Shown here: one piece after another, positions 28,408-49,188 of the stretch
Position numbering within the stretch: the first letter of the stretch is position 1
Layout of the letters: every line of letters starts with the position of its first letter
NCBI GenBank assembly: GCA_963662625.1
Contig: OY759726.1
Location: 352,001 to 416,000 of the forward strand
From: Nitrosopumilus sp.
Lineage (GTDB): Archaea; Thermoproteota; Nitrososphaeria; Nitrososphaerales; Nitrosopumilaceae
Reading direction: 5' to 3'
DNA: 64,000 nt
Program-made: the position numbers and the translations under genes
Notes under the pieces: model-generated
The model's input: only the letters and a program-made list of their open reading frames with translations
The model's database searches: none
What the model was told of the DNA's origin: nothing

Positions 28408-31400
28408 TCACGGCGGCACCAGGCCGATCTCCATGGGAACGGTGGAGCCCGGCGCGGGGTCGGCAACTGTCAGCATTCCCGGAACCCTGGATGCGGGATC
28501 CCCGGGGGAAGTCGCATGCCAGTACAGGAGTACTGCTTGCGCACGAAAGTCCGCGGGAACGATGTCCGTGGATGCGGTGCCGCCTGCGTCGGTGACCACA
28601 TCCCACGTTTCGCCCGTGGAGTACGTGTGTATGCGGACGGTCACTCCGGGCAACGCGGGCTCTCCGGCGTCCCTGGTGCCGTCGTAGTCTAGGTCGCGGA
28701 ATGTCGTGACGTTGAGGGTGACCGCCTCGGACGGCAACACCGGACGGAACCCCGCGTCAAACGTCGCGGTCTTGCCCGGTCCAGGACTCACGTACGCGTA
28801 GAACGGACCGGTGGTGATGACGTGATCAAACGGAAAGTACGAAGTCTGCACCAGTACCGTTTCGTCCATGGCGTTTATGCCAAATATGTACGTGCCTCCT
28901 GCGTCGGTAACCGCTTCCAAAACGGCATGTGGGCTTGCGGGGTCTATCACATGCATCGTGTACCCGGGGATTCCTGCCTCTCCCGCGTCCCTTGTGCCGT
29001 TGCCGTTCGTGTCGTAGAACACCGTGCCTGCCACGATCACCGGGGCGGCCGTGGGGCCGTCTGCAACCGTGACGGTGATGCCCATTGAGCTGGGATGCCC
29101 AAAGCCGCCGGAGGACACCACGGTGATGTCGTAGGACGCCTTTGCGTACTCGGCAGACTTGGACAGGAGCACGTTTCCGCGCACCTCGAACAGATCCCCG
29201 TCTCCTTCCGGGACCACGCTGTACGAGGGGTTCTGCCCGTCAAGGAACCTGTTCTGCGCCGCGAGGGTAGTTACTGCGAGGTCGCCAACTGCCACCTCGG
29301 TATCGCCCGGCACGACGTACCAGTCTCCCAGATCTTGGTTGAACGAGTCCGCGCCTGAGAACATGCCGGACATGTCGGTGGCGGCAGAGACGTCCCAGGA
29401 GTCCAGGGGCTGGTTGAAGGATCCAGCATCCCGGAACATGCTCGACATGTAGGCGACACTTGAGACGTCCCAGGAGCCCAGGGGCTGGTTGAAGGATTCA
29501 GCATCCCGGAACATGTCGGACATGTCGGTGGCGGCAGAGACGTCCCAGGAGTCCAGGGGCTGGTTGAAGGAGGATGCAAACGCGAACACGCCGTACATGT
29601 CGGTGGCGGCAGAGACGTCCCAGGAGTCCAGGGGCTGGTCGAAGGAGAAGGCACCCATGAACATGCCGGACATGTCGGTGGCGGCAGAGACGTCCCAGGA
29701 GTCCAGGGGCTGGTCGAAGGAGTTCGCTCCCGCTAACATGCCGGACATGTCGGTGGCGGCAGAGACGTCCCAGGCGTCAAGGGGCTGGTTGAAGGATTCA
29801 GCATCCCGGAACATGCCGGACATGTCCGTCACGCCAGACACGTCCCAAGAGGAGATGCCGCCGTTGAAAGAGGATGCACCATGGAACATACGGGACATGT
29901 CGGTGACCTCGGCGAGGTCAGGGGCGTCCGTCGCGTTGTATGTCATGTTGGCCGCGTCTCGGAACGCCGACTCCATCGTGGTCCACTCTGCGGTGCCCCA
30001 CTGGTCTATCGAGCGCAGCTTGGCGGCGTTCTCTGGATCCCCGCCCAGGTAGATCCTCGTAAAGTCGCCGTACACCTGCACGGTCCATGTGCCGGGGGAG
30101 GTGTAAATGTGGGTAGTGTCAGACCTATGCATGCTAACGTGTCCGTCCCCCCAGTCGACTGCATAAGTGCCGGTGGCATCACCTACAGGGATCGTGATTG
30201 TTTCCCCAGGATAGTCAGTCTGCCACGTAGTGACAAACCGGTCGGATGTCGCAGGCGGCTGTATTGGTGGGACTACCGTGATGGTCAGGCTAATGGAGTT
30301 GGGCGACGAAAAGCCCCCGGTGGACACTATGGTGATGTCGTAGGAGGGCTTTGTGTATGTGGGTAATTTGTATTGGAGTACATTCCCATACATCTCGAAC
30401 ATGTCCCCGTCGCCTTCCGGCACGACAGTATATGTGGGGTTCTGCCCCTCAAGGTATCCATTCTGCGCCGTGATAGCAGTTACCATGACCGCGTCGTGGA
30501 ATACCATGGTGGAGACAGGCACGATGTACCAGTCTCCCAGATCTTGGTTGAACGAGTCCGCGCCTGAGAACATGCCGTACATGTAGGTGGCGGCAGAGAC
30601 GTCCCAGGAGTCCAGGGGCTGGTCGAAGGATCCAGCATCCCAGAACATGCTTGACATGTCGGTGACGCTTGAGACGTCCCAGTCGCCCAGATCCTGGTTG
30701 AACGAGTCCGCGCCTGAGAACATGCCGTACATGTAGGTGGCGGCAGAGACGTCCCAGGAGTCCAGGGGCTGGTCGAAGGATCCAGCATCCCGGAACATGC
30801 TTGACATGTCGGTGACGCTTGAGACGTCCCAGGAGTCCAGGGGCTGGTCGAAGGATCCAGCATCCCGGAACATGCTTGACATGTAGGTGACGCTTGAGAC
30901 GTCCCAGTCGCCCAGATCTTGGTTGAACGAGTCCGCGCCTGAGAACATGAAGGACATGTAGGTGGCGGCAGAGACGTCCCAGGAGTCCAGGGGCTGGTCG
31001 AAGGATCCAGCATCCCGGAACATGCTTGACATGTCGGTGACGCTTGAGACATCCCAGGAGTCGAGGGGCTGGTCGAAGGAGGCGTTCTGGGCGAACATAT
31101 GATTCATGTCCGTCACGCCTGACACGTCCCAGGAGTCCAGGGGCTGGTCGAAGGAGGATGCAAACGCGAACATGCCGGACATGTCGGTGGCGGCAGAGAC
31201 GTCCCAGGAGTCCAGGGGCTGGTCGAAGGAGGATGCAAACGCGAACATGCCGGACATGTCGGTGACACTTGAGACATTCCAGGAGTCGAGGGGCTGGTCG
31301 AAGGAGGCGTTCTGGGCGAACATATGATTCATGTCCGTCACGCCCGACACGTCCCAGGAGTCCAGGGGCTGGTCGAAGGAGTTCGCTCCCTCGAACATCC

Positions 31401-32352
31401 AGCTCATGTCCGTCACGCCCGACACGTCCCAGGAGTCCAGGGGCTGGTCGAAGGAGGCGTTCTGGGCGAACATATGATTCATGTCCGTCACGCCCGACAC
31501 GTCCCAGGAGTCCAAGGGCTGGTCGAAGGAGGCGGCGTCCTTGAACATCCCCTCCATGTCCGTCACGCCCGACACGTCCCAGGAGTCCAAGGGCTGGTCG
31601 AAGGAGGCGGCGTCCTTGAACATCCCCTCCATGTCCGTCACGCCCGACACGTCCCAGGAGTCCAGGGGCTGGTTGAAGGAGTCCGCGCCCGTGAACATCC
31701 AGCTCATGTCCGTCACGCCCGACACGTCCCAAGAGGAGGTGCCGCCGTTGAAGGAGGATGCACCATGGAACATACTGGACATGTCGGTGACCTCGGCGAG
31801 GTCAGGGGCGTCCGTCGCGTTGTATGTCATGTTGGCCGCGTCTCGGAACGCCGACTCCATCGTGGTCCACTCTGCGGTGCCCCACTGGTCTATCGAGCGC
31901 AGCTTGGCGGCGTTCTCTGGATCCCCGCCCAGGTAGATCCTCGCAAAGTCCCCCCACACCTGCACGGTGTAAATCCCGGGTGAGTCGTATTCGTGCGTGG
32001 CGTCGCCCGAATGCGTGCCGGTGCTACCGTCCCCCCAGTCCACCGCATAGGTGCCCTCGGCGTCCCCGACGGGGATTGTTATGGACTCCCCGGCGGCGCC
32101 GGTCTCCCAGGTGGTGATGAAGAGGCTTTCGGGCAGCGGCATGGATCCGGCGGGCCCCGCCGGGCTGCCTGCGTGCGTCATGCCTCCGTCTCCCGCGCCC
32201 AGTGCTACAGGCGATGCCACGATCGCGGACGCCATCGCCGCGACTGCGAGACAAAGCACCAAACGCGTTATCAGCACGCGCGCGTTCCTCCCAGTGGGGA
32301 AAGACAGACCGATCCAGCGAACCGTGGCGATCCCGACCCCCAATGACTGCAT
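28408..32352 (-). CDS. BspA/DUF285 leucine-rich-repeat surface protein with PKD-like and SdrD-B-like domains
   Basis: Many 25-aa MF..A.SF(D/N)QPLDSWDVS repeats; two VDWGDG modules; C-terminal DTNGNGTRDAGE and DYDGTRDAGE; signal-like segment; start uncertain. Confidence 0.9.
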   Translation of the reverse strand: MQSLGVGIATVRWIGLSFPTGRNARVLITRLVLCLAVAAMASAIVASPVALGAGDGGMTHAGSPAGPAGSMPLPESLFITTWETGAAGESITIPVGDAEGTYAVDWGDGSTGTHSGDATHEYDSPGIYTVQVWGDFARIYLGGDPENAAKLRSIDQWGTAEWTTMESAFRDAANMTYNATDAPDLAEVTDMSSMFHGASSFNGGTSSWDVSGVTDMSWMFTGADSFNQPLDSWDVSGVTDMEGMFKDAASFDQPLDSWDVSGVTDMEGMFKDAASFDQPLDSWDVSGVTDMNHMFAQNASFDQPLDSWDVSGVTDMSWMFEGANSFDQPLDSWDVSGVTDMNHMFAQNASFDQPLDSWNVSSVTDMSGMFAFASSFDQPLDSWDVSAATDMSGMFAFASSFDQPLDSWDVSGVTDMNHMFAQNASFDQPLDSWDVSSVTDMSSMFRDAGSFDQPLDSWDVSAATYMSFMFSGADSFNQDLGDWDVSSVTYMSSMFRDAGSFDQPLDSWDVSSVTDMSSMFRDAGSFDQPLDSWDVSAATYMYGMFSGADSFNQDLGDWDVSSVTDMSSMFWDAGSFDQPLDSWDVSAATYMYGMFSGADSFNQDLGDWYIVPVSTMVFHDAVMVTAITAQNGYLEGQNPTYTVVPEGDGDMFEMYGNVLQYKLPTYTKPSYDITIVSTGGFSSPNSISLTITVVPPIQPPATSDRFVTTWQTDYPGETITIPVGDATGTYAVDWGDGHVSMHRSDTTHIYTSPGTWTVQVYGDFTRIYLGGDPENAAKLRSIDQWGTAEWTTMESAFRDAANMTYNATDAPDLAEVTDMSRMFHGASSFNGGISSWDVSGVTDMSGMFRDAESFNQPLDAWDVSAATDMSGMLAGANSFDQPLDSWDVSAATDMSGMFMGAFSFDQPLDSWDVSAATDMYGVFAFASSFNQPLDSWDVSAATDMSDMFRDAESFNQPLGSWDVSSVAYMSSMFRDAGSFNQPLDSWDVSAATDMSGMFSGADSFNQDLGDWYVVPGDTEVAVGDLAVTTLAAQNRFLDGQNPSYSVVPEGDGDLFEVRGNVLLSKSAEYAKASYDITVVSSGGFGHPSSMGITVTVADGPTAAPVIVAGTVFYDTNGNGTRDAGEAGIPGYTMHVIDPASPHAVLEAVTDAGGTYIFGINAMDETVLVQTSYFPFDHVITTGPFYAYVSPGPGKTATFDAGFRPVLPSEAVTLNVTTFRDLDYDGTRDAGEPALPGVTVRIHTYSTGETWDVVTDAGGTASTDIVPADFRAQAVLLYWHATSPGDPASRVPGMLTVADPAPGSTVPMEIGLVPP
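29330..31790 (-). repeat. Two arrays of 75-bp DUF285 repeat units (approx. 29330-29900 and 30530-31790)
   Basis: GTCCCAGGAGTCCAGGGGCTGGTCGAAGGA core recurs at 75-bp period. Confidence 0.92.
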
Positions 32353-40660: not shown

Positions 40661-41135
40661 CCGCATGACCAAGGCGGGGGCCCCGCCGGTGCGGCATCTG
40701 CCGGCGGGGGCGGCGACGGTGCACGTGGCCGTGGCGGCCAGAAGGGGGCCTCCCGCCCCGACCGGCGCGTCTTGCCACGGGACTGCAGGGAAGCGCGGGG
40801 GTTCCAAGGCAAGGGCGGCGGCTGCCGCCAAGATGCCGGGGATCGCGCCCTGGATGCCGAAGGAGGGGACTGGCCCTGGGGCGTGCCCGGCGGGGGCAGG
40901 AAGTGCACGGAGCGCGGGGAGGAGCGCGGGGCATGAACGCGGGCCACATCATGGCCAGGGGCTTGTGCGTTTGAACCATGGGGTTCGATGCCCGACCCAG
41001 CAGCTACACCCAGGCCCTGACGAATGGATGGAGATGGTGCTGGGATTCGATGCCCGAATGGACACGTGTCCGCACCATCCCTTGGAAACGGACGCCGCCC
41101 AGCGTGAGCCATGCCCTGACGCATGAAAGCGGCCG
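40656..41135 (+). mobile_element. Degenerate IS110-family C-terminal remnant plus non-coding right end
   Basis: RGRMTKAGAPPVRHLPAGAA...KRGGSKARAAAAAKMPGIAPWMPKEG resembles GRITKxGxxxxRxLLxEAA...KRGxxKAxVAxAxKxxxIxxxMLK. Confidence 0.65.
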
Positions 41136-41178
41136 CCATATTTATTAAGATTGCACACAGGCAGTTATAGAACTAATA

Positions 41179-41748
41179 ATGACTTGGAAAAATTCAAAAC
41201 AGACACTGCCTGTAATATTTACAATTACAGCTCTTCTAATCGCAATCCCTGGAATCGCATATGCAAATACAGAACCTTGGACTTGGCCATCAGCTGATCA
41301 ACATTATCTGTGCACATCATCTGTGCCAAATATTACCCATACATCAAATGTTAATCCATGTGGTGACTTGAACAGTTCATCTAATGTTTGGGAAGCAGGC
41401 TCAGGTAACTCTTGGGATCTTGATCCATCTAGTAGTGGTTGGCCAGTATATGCATGGAGTCTTCCATCTGGAACTGGAGGCGAAACATATGTGGCATACA
41501 ACTCTAGTGGTGAAGCACGTTATGCATGGATAGTTATGAACAAAAATTTGTCTTGGGAAGATTCCAATAAAGACTGGTGGACTAGTGGTTATGACTGGAG
41601 AACCTTTACTGGTCATGAGTTTGGCCATCTGGCAGGAATATCTCATACATCAAATAGTAATTCCATAATGTATGATTCAAGAGGACCTAATGACGCAGAA
41701 CGCAGCCCCCCACAACATGAAATAAACCACATGAAGGACAAGTATTGA
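41179..41748 (+). CDS. Secreted matrixin-like (metzincin) zinc metallopeptidase, AT-rich
   Basis: Signal peptide (..IAYA), HEFGHLAGISH, Met-turn SIMY. Confidence 0.85.
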   Translation: MTWKNSKQTLPVIFTITALLIAIPGIAYANTEPWTWPSADQHYLCTSSVPNITHTSNVNPCGDLNSSSNVWEAGSGNSWDLDPSSSGWPVYAWSLPSGTGGETYVAYNSSGEARYAWIVMNKNLSWEDSNKDWWTSGYDWRTFTGHEFGHLAGISHTSNSNSIMYDSRGPNDAERSPPQHEINHMKDKY

Positions 41749-42314
41749 AGATGATTAACAAAGTTATATTTTCAATATTGGTGATTGCCGTTGCAAGCAT
41801 CTCATTTACTGCTTTGTTAACCAATCAGGATAAAGAGATGAATGTACAAGAAGAGATTACAATTCAGAAAATGAGCTCCTATATTGCAACTGATGTTGAT
41901 GAAATAAAAGCTCTGTCGACTGTAATTTTGGAGGGAAGAGTTATTGACAAATATGTTGTGATGGAGTCAAGAGACGAATTTGGAAAGTTTGTAGATAACG
42001 ATTCAAGCTTGGCAGCAGTAACATATCCTAACATCATATATGAAGTCAAAACAATGGTAAATTACAAGGGCGCTGAGCAAGACAGCATATTGTTGCAAAT
42101 TCCAGGCGGAACAATGAATGGAATTACTGTTACCTCAGACCATGTTGAATATGCAGTTGGAGATATTGTTGTTGTCTTAGTTGATGGGCCATTTGAAAAT
42201 GGATATTATCAACCAACATCTGGCCCACACTCTATATTCAAAATAGACGGTGATTTGGCATCTACGGTTAGAGGCAGCTTGAATGCCGACCAACTAAAGG
42301 ACTCACTAGACTAG
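41745..42314 (+). CDS. Membrane-anchored/secreted hypothetical protein coupled to the peptidase
   Basis: TTGA overlap; N-terminal TM; ILEGRV, QIPGG, VGDIVVV beta-rich domain. Confidence 0.8.
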   Translation: MKMINKVIFSILVIAVASISFTALLTNQDKEMNVQEEITIQKMSSYIATDVDEIKALSTVILEGRVIDKYVVMESRDEFGKFVDNDSSLAAVTYPNIIYEVKTMVNYKGAEQDSILLQIPGGTMNGITVTSDHVEYAVGDIVVVLVDGPFENGYYQPTSGPHSIFKIDGDLASTVRGSLNADQLKDSLD

Positions 42315-42346
42315 AGTGACGCTCATAAATAATTTCCTCCCTGAGA

Positions 42347-43661
42347 CAGTTAAGCGAAATGTACCCGATCCTGCCCCCTCATGGCGGGGGCTTGGGCTCC
42401 AGTATCCTGGCCGACTCCAACTGGCAGGCGAACGCCCGCTGGGCCGTCACGCCGTTCCCGCAACCCCTTCCAGAAAGGACGGCCCGCACCACCACCCACT
42501 CGTTGTACGCCAGCAGCGAGTAGCAGGGGCACGGCATGCGGGCCCCCTCGTCGGCGACCCTAGTCTTGGCCCCCATGGGCCCTGTAACCCTGTACGACGT
42601 CCCGGTGCCCCGCCTGCGCGGGTACCCCCTTGCGCTGGCTGCGGGACGGTTGGTCGCAAACCCGACGTGCCGCTCCTCAGGGACGGGGGGATCGTCGCAC
42701 TTCTTCCTCTCCTCGATCTTGACGTGGTACCCCGCGGAGTTCCGCCCCCCGGCCGCCGCCGGGGACACGCCGGGCCTGGCGTTGCGCGCGGACTCCCGCA
42801 GCGCGGCCACCGCGTTGCCGGTGTTCCTGCACGGCACGGGGTACCCGGTGCGGGCCCTGCCCGGCGCCCTGACCGTCCCCGCCGCGAGGGACTCCCTGCT
42901 CGGCAGGACGGGGCCGGGCCCGATTCCGGCGTCCCGGACAGACCGCAGCGCCCTTTCGACGAAACCGGGCACGGAACCGGACATGCTCGCGCGGTACGCG
43001 CCCAAAACCAGCGGGTACCTGCCCCCGACGCACCGGGCCGCGGCGTGCCTCCCGGACAGCCTGGTTCCGTTCTTGCTCCCGGGGCGGGTCAGCCCGGGCC
43101 CCGGCGCGGAACCGTGGCGCGGTATCAGGTGCATGCCGGTGGCGACGGGGGGCTTGCGGGGCAGCCTTCCGGCCCTTTTGGGCGCGGCCGCTTGCCTCCC
43201 CACGGCGCCGCCGAGGGCATCCTGGATCCCGGCGCCGCCGGCCCCCCGGGCGCCAAGGCGGACCGCCTGCCCGGGGGGGCCGCCCTGCTGTGCACGGCCT
43301 TGGCCGCGTTGGCGCACCCCCCGACCTGGTGCGGGACAGGACCGGGGAGCGGTGCCACTGTGCACGGCCTTGGCCGCGTTGGCGCACCCCCCGACCGACG
43401 AGTCCCGGAGCGCGGCCCCAAGCATGCCCCGGCTGGGGGCGCCCGCTCCAAACACGGCGTTGCGGCCCGCTGGCCGCATGAGCTGGGCCAGGAACCCGCG
43501 CATGCCTGCGACGACACCCTGATATAGGCGGGGGTCGTTCACCATGTCGCGGCCCTGGCGGGTCTTGTTTCGAGACAATCCAAGTCTTGTCGGGGCCCAT
43601 CCCCTGTTGATCTGTTTGGAATTGCGAGAGTTGACTATTTGGTCTACTTTTCGCTTAACTG
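42347..43661 (-). mobile_element. Nested degenerate ISH3-family element (1315 bp) with 6-bp TSD CTGAGA
   Basis: TIR CAGTTAAGCGAAATGTA / TACTTTTCGCTTAACTG; CTGAGA at 42341-42346 and 43662-43667; YPRRRGTGTSYR is a decayed YxxRWGIETxYR. Confidence 0.9.
43288..43396. repeat. 39-bp direct repeat enclosing a 31-bp unique insert
   Basis: CTGTGCACGGCCTTGGCCGCGTTGGCGCACCCCCCGACC at 43288-43326 and 43358-43396. Confidence 0.93.
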
Positions 43662-44381
43662 CTGAGAGGGGGCACTGCAGAAAAGCCTGTTGATCACCGG
43701 ATCGCCGAACCATCCACGGGCGGGACCGACAGGAAACCGCGGGACCTGACGGAGGCCATGCGCGCAGAGAGGGACGCCAGGATCCGCAACAGGACGGTGG
43801 CAGTGCGCGGGGTGCCCGGCGGATACCCCGCGAGGGACGCCGCGTACTTCGTAGACGTAGAACAGCGCACAGTCCGCCCGTGGGCGGGACGGTCCGGCAC
43901 CGGCGGCCTCCGGGACATTCCCGGCAGGGGAAGGAACCCGCGCGTCCGGTACGGCCCCATGGGCAGGCTTGCCGGCAGGCTCGGCCGCATGGGCATGCCC
44001 GCGCCGAGGAAGCTCCGCAACAGGGTGCGCGGGGTGCCCGGGCGCGCGCACGTCCCGTGCAGCGTGCGCAGGATCATGAGGGAACTGGGGTTCTCCCCCA
44101 AGAGGCCCGCCACCAAATATGCAGCTGCCGCAGGCGACGACGCGGTGCGGCGGCTGCGGGCCTGCGCCGCAGGCGCGATTCTGCGCGCAAGGAGGCGCAA
44201 GACGGCGACAGTGGTGCAGGACGGGCCCGCCTTCGTCAGGATGGGCACCAACGGCCGGAGGCTGTGGTCCCGCGTAGGGGAGGGGGCCGCCGCCGGCAGG
44301 CCCGGCAGGAGGGACAGGGCAGCCGCGTGCGGCTCCCTCGCGGCCGACGGGACGGGGCCGGTGCGGCCGTGCGGCAGGCCC

Positions 44382-44492
44382 GGTGGGGACACCTTCCTGG
44401 CGTACCCCAGGGAGATCCATGAGGCTGTGACATGAGGTGCGTGATCTGCCGGAGGGGTGGGGACACCTTCCTGGCGTACCCCAGGGAGATCC
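44382..44492. repeat. 37-bp direct repeat enclosing a 37-bp unique insert
   Basis: GGTGGGGACACCTTCCTGGCGTACCCCAGGGAGATCC at 44382-44418 and 44456-44492; single copy in IS630 copy B. Confidence 0.95.
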
Positions 44493-44811
44493 GGCGCAAG
44501 CGGGGGCGCGCGCCGGTGGCAGCGGGCAACGCGGGGCAGCACGGGACGGCGGACGCGGGGGAATGCCTGCGGGACCGCCGAGAGATCGAGGCACTGTACC
44601 TTCCCACCGCCACGCCGAAGCCCGGCGCGGCGGGGGCCGTGTGGAAGGAGGCAAAGCACGGGCGGGTCACGTCCAGGCACCACGGGACGCTGGACGGCTT
44701 GAGGCGCTCAGTCTCGGAGTATTTCAGGACGTGCCCGATCAGGGCGGGCACCTGCAAGTTCCTGTACCGTTCCATATGAGGGGAAATTTTCAATAATCGT
44801 CACTATAGGCC

Positions 44812-45544: not shown

Positions 45545-46435
45545 ATGACTGGAAAAAAGACAATCATAATTGCTTCATTGATTGCTGCAGTGTTAATCCC
45601 ACTATCACTACAAGTAGGAAGTGCTGACCAAAACACTCAGGCTCAAAATGTAAAACAACTGTTTGCAGATGTCGACCAAGAGATTAGACAGTATGTAAAC
45701 GGAGATATGAAAAACCCTGAAGACAAAAAAGCACAACTAATTGAAAAGTATTCAAACAATCTTGAGGCAATAATCAATACCATAACAATTCATGACAACT
45801 TACAATTTGACTCTGAAGTAGAGGGAATAAAAGAGTTGATTATCTCAGAACACATGAGTGAGGTAAATAGACAGAAAATAATCTCCCAAATCCCTGATGA
45901 TGCCATTACAGAAACTATAGAGGTAGAACCTGATTTATCCAAACAAGGGGTATTTGAGCTGCCAAAGGCATATGCTGCCGGAAATCCATACCCAATAAAC
46001 ACATGGAAACAAGTAACCCATGACAGAACAGGCGGTTCTGGTACTGACAGTTCTGGTAACTCTTACAACATCAATGGCAACAATCACTTTACCTCACTAT
46101 CAACCTCATATACATCATCCAAAGTAACATACACTTTGACATTCAAAGATGAAGACCACCCAAATCCATTCTGGGATAAATTTTGGGATAATTGGAGACA
46201 GATTCAGTATGGTAGGACCACTGATATCGAATCCTTCACAGTTGATTCTAATGGGGTAAAGTTTCCAGGAATTTGGGATAATGACAAGACGTTTGCAGAG
46301 TTTATGGGTCAACATGGTACAAAAACCAGATCATACTATTCGGGAATGAGTATCTATGTTAGTAATGTCTGGAATCATGCTATGGATACAACCAATGAAA
46401 ACCCTGGAATGTCAATTACAACATTGACTACATAA
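45545..46435 (+). CDS. Secreted hypothetical protein (296 aa), AT-rich
   Basis: Signal peptide; acidic helical N-half; second AYA site; C-half with FKDEDHP, GRTTDIESF, VWNHA; oligo-T follows. Confidence 0.82.
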   Translation: MTGKKTIIIASLIAAVLIPLSLQVGSADQNTQAQNVKQLFADVDQEIRQYVNGDMKNPEDKKAQLIEKYSNNLEAIINTITIHDNLQFDSEVEGIKELIISEHMSEVNRQKIISQIPDDAITETIEVEPDLSKQGVFELPKAYAAGNPYPINTWKQVTHDRTGGSGTDSSGNSYNINGNNHFTSLSTSYTSSKVTYTLTFKDEDHPNPFWDKFWDNWRQIQYGRTTDIESFTVDSNGVKFPGIWDNDKTFAEFMGQHGTKTRSYYSGMSIYVSNVWNHAMDTTNENPGMSITTLTT

Positions 46436-47791: not shown

Positions 47792-49188
47792 TTACTGCAG
47801 ATAGCTAGGAATCTTTTTTATAATGTATGAAAGTGATATTTTTCCAGGACCGCTAACAATTACAAACAAACATGCAGATACCTGGAATAAATTCAGCTAG
47901 AGTGACGCTCATAAATAATTTCCTCCCTGAGAGGGGGCACTGCAGAAAAGCCTGTTGATCACCGGATCGCCGAACCATCAATGGACGAGACCGACAGGAA
48001 ACTACGGGACCTGACGGAGGCCATGCGCGCAGAGAGGGACGCCAGGATCCGCAACAGGATGATGGCAGTGCGCGGGGTGCCCGGCGGATACTCCACGAGG
48101 GACGCCGCGTACTTCGTAGACGTAGAACAGCGCACCGTCCGCCTGTGGGTGGAACGATCCGGCGCCGGCGGCGCCGGTGGCCTCCGGGACATTCCCGGCA
48201 GGGGAAGGAACCCGCGCATCCGGTACGGCCTCATGGGCAGGCTTGCCGGCAGGCTCGGCCGCATGGGCATGCTCACGCCGGGGAGGCCCCGCAACAGGGT
48301 GCGCCGGAAGCCCGGGCGCGCGCACGGCCCGTGCGGCGTGCGCAGGATCATGAGGGAACTGGGGTTCTCCCCCAAGAGGTCCACCACCAAATATGCAGCT
48401 GCCGCAGGCGACGACGCGGTGCGGCGGTGGCAGGCCGACGCCGCAGGCGCGATTCTGCGCGCAAGGAGGCGCAAGACGGTGACAGTCGTGCAGGACGGGC
48501 CCGTCTTCGCCAGGATGGGCACCAACGGCAGGAGGCTGTGGTCCCGCGTCGGGGAGGGGGTCGCCGCCGGCAGGTCCGGCAGGAGGGACAGGGTAGTCGC
48601 GTGCGGCTCCCTCGCGGCCGACGGGACGGGGCCGGTGCGGCCGTGCGGCAGGTCCGGCGGGGACACCTTCCTGGCGTACCTCAAGGAGATCCGGCGCAAG
48701 TGGGGGCGCGCGCTGGTGATAATGGACAACGCGGGGCAGCACAGGACGGCGGACGCGGGGGAATACCTGCGGGACCACCGAGAGATCGAGGCACTGTACC
48801 TTCCCACCGCCACGCCGAAGCCCGGCGCGGCGGGGGCCGTGTGGAAGGAGGCAAAGTACAGGCTGGCCACGTCCAGGCACTACGAGACGCTGGACGGCTT
48901 GAGGCGCTCAGTCTCGGAGTATTTCAGGACGTGCCCGATCAGGGTGGACACCTGCAAGTTCCTGTACCGTTCCATATGAGGGGAAATTTTCAATAATCGT
49001 CACTATAGTGCAATTGGTATTTGCATCTCTACAGGTATTCCCATACTTGATATCCAGTTACCAAATCCTGGATTACCAAACTTTCCTACTCCGTGAGCTA
49101 TAAAGATTACTCCAATGACTGATCGCAGTCCCATATTTACAATATCGTCAAATTTGGATATTGAAAATCCCGTATTTTCTTCAATGGT
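47792..49188 (-). pseudogene. DoxX-family membrane protein gene split by IS630 copy B, with internal deletion and lost start
   Basis: GLRSVIGVIFIAHGVGKF...MQIPIAL / AEFIPGI resumes across the IS; ..VIVSGPGKISLSYIIKKIPSYLQ* in a shifted frame. Confidence 0.8.
47900..49005 (+). mobile_element. IS630-family element copy B; ORF 47981-48979 open but probably inactive
   Basis: TA TSD at 47898-47899 and 49006-49007 (CTAG target); MDNAGQH kept, but QDG for QDE and PKPGAAG for PxLxxxE. Confidence 0.92.

Follow-up and report, generated by a model that had tools for sequence, protein, structure and literature searches.

Results

The locus and its insertion sequences

The window, by which we mean the whole stretch of 64,000 nucleotides analysed, corresponds to positions 352001-416000 of a single-contig genome of 1,858,698 bp; coordinates below refer to the window unless they are called genome coordinates. 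In its PolD DP2 the organism shares 65-76% identity with named Nitrosopumilaceae and is, on these grounds, assigned to this family as an ammonia-oxidising archaeon, with a GC content that is unusually high at 63%. Two islands of lower GC (0.42-0.55) occur in the window at 41001-42000 and 45545-46435, one of which encodes a secreted-looking protein of 296 aa that has no Pfam match and lies between two IS copies.

Two copies of an insertion sequence are present on the + strand. Copy B (47897-49008) contains an intact 332-aa ORF (47981-48979) with a DDE_3 domain (PF13358, E 4.2e-10), and the assignment of the host element to the IS630/Tc1 type is therefore sound; its ends look inverted-repeat-like by eye. 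Copy A (42311-44808) is wrecked, and its transposase fragments fall below DDE_3 scoring. The left end of copy A (42311-42346), which is 100% identical to 47897-47932 of copy B, is split from the body by a nested multi-copy element (42347-43661), followed by a degenerate stretch of the transposase region (43662-44381) that gives no DDE_3 match and has GNAGQH where copy B has the motif DNAGQH. The remainder of copy A up to its right end (44493-44808) shows 94% identity to 48656-49008 of copy B. The nested element is 1.3 kb long, with inverted ends (CAGTTAAGCG... and ...CGCTTAACTG) and a 6-bp duplication (CTGAGA), and shows 91-97% identity to genome positions 766630-767875 and to three other copies. 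That these four copies are all equally similar to the one in the window suggests that the element was recently active.

A 37-bp insert between two copies of a 37-bp target

Between the two transposase portions of copy A, the sequence GGTGGGGACACCTTCCTGGCGTACCCCAGGGAGATCC, which begins with G and ends with C, is found at 44382-44418 and again, as an exact direct repeat (100% identity), at 44456-44492, with a start-to-start distance of 74. The 37 bases enclosed by the two copies (44419-44455) are ATGAGGCTGTGACATGAGGTGCGTGATCTGCCGGAGG, a spacer-sized sequence in which a small internal quasi-repeat (ATGAGG, twice) can be read. The original prediction had described an exact 37-bp duplication around a 37-bp insert occurring nowhere else in the window, and both statements hold, as the insert has a single occurrence in the window and also in the whole genome. 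The repeat gave zero matches in 100 shuffles of the window, and its sole other match in the real window is 48656-48692, with 3 mismatches, which is the single-copy target of IS copy B. The added 74 bp (3 x 24 + 2) shift the reading frame, as had been proposed, and the + frame ends in a stop at 44435.

Support for both junctions, for which spanning reads had been called for, came from Logan unitigs. Two runs each contain a 97-letter piece identical to 44389-44485 (zero differences), made up of 30 nt of the first target copy, the whole insert and 30 nt of the second, a span that is one letter below the 31-letter bridging rule, as expected from a k=31 graph around a 37-bp repeat. The two runs are two samples from one study, which is possibly the assembly's own source, and so are perhaps not independent.

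The state of the site before the event could be read from paralogs. On either side of the scar, alignments to five other IS copies of the genome were obtained, and in each of these copies the left and right alignments overlap by exactly 37 bp; thus the target is single in these copies and the 74 bp represent an insertion together with a target duplication. The insert had been noted as absent from copy B, and this extends to all five copies, which have the single target and lack the 74 bp. Position 3 of the target is C in all five and T in both duplicates of copy A. Since this T is common to the two duplicates, the event occurred on the copy-A lineage. The earlier suggestion that both repeats carry copy-A-specific variants therefore stands for this one position; the two remaining mismatches with copy B are not private to copy A. 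The substitution spectrum of the IS copies showed no clear hypermutation (private changes of copy A: 10 AT-to-GC versus 11 GC-to-AT).

Copy A has two such scars. The other one sits 1 kb upstream, inside the nested element, at 43288-43396, and consists of a 39-bp target (43288-43326), an insert of 31 bp as delimited (43327-43357) for which no donor was found in the genome, and a 39-bp duplicate of the target (43358-43396), with a period of 70. The empty site is present in four paralogs, with a 37-bp overlap.

Scars of the same geometry are found throughout the genome

A genome-wide list was then made of direct repeats that are isolated, non-tandem and present in two copies, after filtering out the 75-nt coding-repeat arrays of large surface proteins (DUF285, BspA-like), which swamp naive repeat searches; long arrays of this kind are found at 29367-31630 of the window and in other places in the genome. 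Among exact pairs of at least 24 bp with periods of 35-299, 23 of 32 fell in the 70-74 bin, and every other 5-bp bin held 2 or fewer. Relaxing the match gave the same peak at 69-74: 21 of the 22 pairs at periods 40-130 when up to 4 mismatches in 34 were allowed, 22/23 with up to 6 in 36, and 22/28 with up to 8 in 36, the last search also yielding six further degraded candidates. The merged list comprises 27 scars, with periods of 69 (one), 70 (four), 71 (three), 72 (six), 73 (ten) and 74 (three). The genome scan proposed with the original prediction has therefore returned a narrow length distribution and not a broad one.

The duplication measures 36-39 bp in 20/27 scars, and its apparent length has a mode of 37-38 bp, about +0.9 bp of which is accounted for by chance extension of the boundary. 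Some duplications (34, 35 and 39-43 bp) would need a loose ruler or later mutation. At least nine scars, including the one at 44382-44492, have an empty site in paralogs, with alignment overlaps of 36-40 bp, and one apparent outlier (26/47) became 36/37 once it was set against its paralogs. The variances of duplication and insert length are 1.98 and 3.84, compared with 2.29 for their sum, with a covariance of -1.77.

The scars occur genome-wide, and 15/27 are within or next to repeated DNA; for genome windows the share is 16%, a comparison that is somewhat generous because each scar contributes two flanks. Survival at harmless sites is the simplest reading of this enrichment. An alternative raised earlier, of an integrase of unknown type acting on transposases, gains no support from this distribution. 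A Pfam domain was found in just 5 of 141 ORF fragments around the scars (15 fragments shorter than 100 aa being left out of the scan), and several scars lie directly upstream of genes. ORF lengths at occupied and empty sites were too noisy at this high GC to sort scars into genic and non-genic.

One further place, at genome positions 463591-463770, has three copies of a 35-36-nt repeat with periods of 72 and 71. Its two spacers (36 and 35 nt) are unique and gave neither a paralog nor donors, and the repeat has ATGGGGCCG in common with the genuine CRISPR repeat of this genome. It may be either an ectopic site that received two acquisitions, that is, a nascent array, or a relic mini-array.

A complete type I-G system with matching dimensions

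The genome contains one Cas1 homologue, located within its CRISPR locus, a full-length Cas4g/Cas1g fusion of 554 aa (NF049935, 727.6 bits against a cut-off of 560) directly followed by a 95-aa Cas2. This module is on the leader side of an array (genome 1,683,976-1,693,742) of 135 identical 36-bp repeats and 134 spacers; the leader was placed beside cas2 because the low-coordinate end of the array has a degenerate repeat and the repeat ends, on the minus strand, in ...ATTGAAGC, which we take to be the crRNA handle. On the other side of the array are Cas8g/Csx17, Cas7g (Csb1), Csb2 and Cas3g, partly duplicated. NCBIfam matches above cut-off were obtained for NF049935, TIGR04113, TIGR02570, TIGR02165 and TIGR02621, and the system is classed by its gene content as type I-G, with the full set of Cas4/Cas1 fusion, Cas8g (Csx17), Cas7g (Csb1), Csb2 and Cas3g. 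The effector genes at genome 1666000-1684200 are doubled in tandem (two Cas7g, two Csb2 and two Cas3g), together with one Cas8g/Csx17 and one Cas3-extension protein, and a gene for an IS481-type transposase separates the effector sets.

Array spacers are 34 bp (1), 35 bp (22), 36 bp (41), 37 bp (44), 38 bp (17), 39 bp (8) or 40 bp (1) long, giving periods of 70-76 with a mean of 72.61 ± 1.15; the scars average 72.07 ± 1.38 (n=27). For the scar at 44382-44492, comparison with the array places the period of 74 at that of 17/134 array units and the 37-bp insert within the 34-40-bp range of spacers, whereas the 37-bp duplication exceeds the 36-bp repeat by one base, an excess that a chance boundary match is expected to produce about a third of the time. 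The comparison with the CRISPR repeats and cas1 that had been asked for thus finds matching lengths beside an intact Cas4/Cas1 and Cas2.

The ends of the duplications show a preference. G is the 5' base on its own strand at the left end in 19/27 scars (p 3.5e-5) and at the right end in 15/27 (p 0.008), and the left end is often GC, resembling the 5'-GCTTC that the genuine repeat has at its spacer-side end. The targets have no overall resemblance to the CRISPR repeat (best matches 12.96 vs 12.86, p 0.52), and their folding is slightly stronger than that of random 37-mers (p 0.018). As the duplicated target does not resemble the genuine repeat, crRNA-type processing of it by the type I-G Cas5/6-like protein would seem unlikely.

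Sources of the inserts

When the inserts were mapped to the host genome, 12/27 matched elsewhere in the same chromosome over their full or near-full length, compared with 2/134 of the array spacers. Alignment of scars to donors gave captured lengths of 35-39 bp. Three of the donors, together with the match of array spacer 112, lie at 838-844 kb beside Orc1/Cdc6. This region is likely to be a replication origin, because Orc1/Cdc6 is flanked there by both PolD subunits and accompanied by a lower-GC intergenic stretch. Two further donors are at 881-886 kb, among housekeeping genes. TTN adjoins 4-5 of the 12 donors, which is above chance (P about 0.01-0.03), and the donor match extends at least 2 nt into the duplication on 8/24 sides, where about 2 would be expected, indicating microhomology.

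Array spacers 112 (genome 1692138) and 131 (1693522) are perfect matches to the host chromosome (37/37 and 38/38), and their targets lack an upstream TTN, which may be why these self-matching spacers are tolerated. An excess of self-derived sequence in the scars relative to the array would be expected if ectopic units were not used in interference and hence not purged.

The insert at 44419-44455 itself has no donor among the sequences covered. The best other matches in the genome are 14-mers at E 0.14; exact searches of three public collections of viral, genome and metagenome sequences gave nothing, as did a search of 200 genomes of the family with up to 3 mismatches. BLAST found no match in phages and, in plasmids, two 25-nt matches at E 0.4 that were taken as chance, and similarity to the array spacers is limited to 9-12-mers. 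Consequently, the assignment of this insert as a spacer comes from its size and its sister scars. It had been called foreign, a description that the data do not bear out, given that 12 of the 27 inserts are copies of the host chromosome. The 27 inserts are all different, and no family, terminal inverted repeats or common sequence was found among them. Their folding energy (MFE per nt -0.112) is that of random sequence (-0.110, p 0.52) and does not differ from that of the array spacers (p 0.58); the idea that the inserts are hairpin elements was rejected on this ground.

Comparison with relatives

For comparison, the census was repeated on equal spans of two complete genomes of the same family that lack Cas1 (G008 and G003), about half of each being sampled. 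In the first 792 kb, the present genome has 9 pairs, all at periods of 72-74, whereas G008 has 3 (63, 72 and 103) and G003 has 4 (54, 86, 90 and 111), so that pairs at 69-76 make up 1/7 in the Cas1-less relatives and 9/9 here. The period peak goes with the presence of the integrase in this comparison with about half of each of two Cas1-less genomes. The one exception, an isolated pair with a 39-bp repeat and a period of 72 at position 229546 of contig C1 of G008, may be either a relic scar left by a CRISPR system since lost or a chance occurrence. A congener with the same Cas4/1 (G002) gave no pair at 69-76 in 141 kb of short contigs, where about 2 were expected, a span too short to be informative. 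DNA identity to the relatives is only about 70%. The genes flanking the scar at 103299 are nearly contiguous in G003, which is weakly consistent with an empty site, and the IS copies of G008 gave no alignment across the target at 44382-44492.

Discussion

Off-target integration as the best explanation

Very probably, the scar at 44382-44492 arose when the genome's own type I-G Cas4/Cas1-Cas2 integrated one spacer off-target, at an ectopic site. We infer this catalyst from the anatomy of the scars, the empty paralogous sites that mark the events as insertions, the geometry of the array, the captured sister inserts, the intact adaptation module and the lack of the signal in the spans sampled from two Cas1-less relatives. 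In terms of the established Cas1-Cas2 reaction, Cas4/Cas1-Cas2 would have been loaded with a prespacer processed to about 36-38 bp. Its two 3'-OH ends would each attack one strand of non-CRISPR DNA, 5' of a G and at a distance of about 36-37 bp from each other, and filling of the gaps would then double the intervening 37 bp on either side of the new insert. Here the target would have been the transposase gene of an IS630-type copy, and because that copy was already damaged the 74-bp insertion could be tolerated and then fixed. The same reaction would have produced at least 26 more scars around the chromosome, nearly half of them with inserts that appear to have been captured from host DNA, notably near the replication origin.

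The original prediction had included ectopic spacer acquisition by Cas1-Cas2, and this part of it is supported by the intact Cas1, the fitting geometry, an insert that is not ancestral to the IS and the narrow lengths. None of the results named beforehand as speaking against it (no Cas1, an ancestral insert, broad lengths, no spanning reads) came about. Two features are not accounted for by the textbook reaction, namely the excess of microhomology at the junctions and a modal duplication of 37-38 bp, not 36. Other observations also count against the reading of the scars as Cas4/Cas1-Cas2 products: the sequences searched gave no donor for the insert at 44419-44455, the targets show no overall likeness to the CRISPR repeat, TTN is found at only 4-5 of the 12 donors, and one pair of period 72 occurs in G008, which has no Cas1.

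The last of these points, together with the microhomology, would suit a lineage-wide process independent of Cas, by which some integrase or repair pathway of another kind adds about 72 nt as a short genomic copy with a compensating duplication of the target. Such a process would also account for the many inserts that copy the host genome's own DNA and for a sum of duplication and insert that is steadier than its parts, although the negative covariance (-1.77) is what ambiguous boundaries alone would be expected to give. We consider it unlikely. The scar periods coincide with those of the resident array, the peak is missing from 792 kb of each Cas1-less relative (1/7 against 9/9 pairs), TTN is enriched at the donors, the inserts are no more prone to form hairpins than random sequence (-0.112 against -0.110, p 0.52), and the genome contains no second Cas1 or casposase-like gene. 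Replication slippage is another candidate, as is microhomology-mediated template switching during repair, in which a distant stretch was copied and the 37-bp target copied again. This would explain why several sister scars have short microhomologies linking the ends of insert and target, and perhaps the ATGAGG quasi-repeat in the insert, but it predicts broad lengths, whereas 23/32 to 21/22 of the isolated pairs, a share that varies with stringency, occupy a period range of just 6 bp. With a duplication equal in length to the CRISPR repeat, and a signal that is missing in the two relatives sampled, we regard it as very improbable.

That the scar sits within mobile DNA might instead suggest the footprint or copy of a tiny MITE-like element making a 37-bp target duplication. 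However, the 27 inserts are all different, have neither family nor terminal inverted repeats nor any excess of secondary structure, and in 12 cases are plain copies of unrelated chromosomal sites; this origin is hardly plausible. Multi-copy IS elements can confuse assemblers, but an assembly artefact is scarcely credible when two runs contain identical 97-letter unitigs that reach from the insert 30 nt into both repeat copies, and when 26 more scars of the same geometry exist, many of them in unique DNA. Insertion by a casposon or casposase was also considered and rejected. Casposons are multi-kilobase elements with a Cas1-family casposase encoded away from CRISPR loci, and they duplicate about 14-15 bp of target; the duplication here is 37 bp, the insert is 37 bp, and the sole Cas1 is in the CRISPR locus.

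Relation to known systems

Off-target integration by Cas1-Cas2 that gives rise to neo-CRISPR loci is credited, in the available text of the sources, to Nivala, Shipman and Church (Nat Microbiol 2018; PMC6698737, PMC7054753, PMC9456107, bioRxiv 10.1101/148544), who used the type I-E system of E. coli with over-produced Cas1-Cas2 and supplied oligonucleotides (PMC7054753, bioRxiv 10.1101/148544); for natural cases, the accessible portion of the preprint mentions just 'two other species' (bioRxiv 10.1101/148544). As far as those portions go, the events described there resemble ours in having a repeat-length target duplication around a spacer-length insert, in lying outside CRISPR loci of a genome with its own integrase gene, and in being spread around the chromosome, with a possible second acquisition in the present case at 463.6 kb. 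They differ, on the same partial text, in that the scars described here are natural, fixed and archaeal, are assigned to a Cas4/Cas1 fusion of type I-G whose ruler is 36 bp, number at least 27 per 1.86 Mb and have about 44% self-derived inserts. Nivala et al. are reported also to have noted, in 2018, circumstantial cases in Yersinia and Sulfolobus.

The closest adaptation system is the type I-U/I-G Cas4/Cas1-Cas2 of Geobacter sulfurreducens, for which the available text of Almendros et al. (2019; PMC6547450) gives 36 bp as the predominant length of new spacers, TTN as the PAM in about 50% of the unique spacers acquired, and both host chromosome and plasmids as sources. The Cas4-Cas1 fusion, spacers of ~36 bp and acquisition from the host chromosome are, in the portions available, features common to that system and the present one, and TTN may be another; by the same text only integration into the array was scored there, whereas our products lie outside the array and the PAM is judged on 12 donors, 4-5 of them with TTN. 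An archaeal precedent for integration at non-CRISPR DNA is provided in vitro by Pyrococcus furiosus Cas1-Cas2, which, according to the accessible text, carries out full-site integration guided by few sequence features and by spacing (PMC6698737). The catalysis proposed here would be of the same kind, but the off-target sites of P. furiosus are described in that text as sharing several motifs of the repeat, whereas ours have just a terminal 5'-G(C) and a slightly higher foldability of the target. Finally, 'ectopic spacer acquisition' in Streptococcus thermophilus and S. mutans denotes, in the available text, a new spacer inserted away from the leader-proximal repeat (PMC7999890, PMC5338259, PMC8265633). 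Those events, as they appear in these sources, take place inside the array at genuine repeats, whereas here ordinary genomic DNA was used and the new 'repeat' came from host sequence. The literature search, which reached few of the subscription-journal papers, turned up no natural genome reported to carry dozens of such fixed scars, and no report of any for type I-G. The proposed mechanism is known, and what is new is the type I-G system and the striking natural density.

Significance

Off-target integration has been proposed as the origin of new CRISPR arrays and as a hidden cost of adaptive immunity, and in the literature covered most of the evidence for it comes from E. coli that over-expresses Cas1-Cas2. 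With about 27 clean scars in a natural genome, the misses of the integrase can be counted, and a general scan for isolated repeat pairs with the period of the array can be applied to any genome. The scars also give access to the intrinsic ruler (about 36-37 bp) and the 5'-G end preference of type I-G Cas4/Cas1-Cas2 away from leader and repeat, to the captured DNA before autoimmunity purges self-targeting spacers from the array, and to evidence that integration can break genes, here a transposase.

A wider interpretation, which we put forward tentatively and regard as possible though rather doubtful, is that the CRISPR integrase acts in this lineage as a recurrent, genome-wide insertion mutagen. 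The fixed scars would then document naive adaptation in nature, free of selection, with self-derived inserts at about 44%, against 2/134 in the array, and a hot spot at the origin. The integrase may prefer mobile or structured DNA, disabling IS elements, and the repeats at genome 463591-463770 may be an array caught at its birth.
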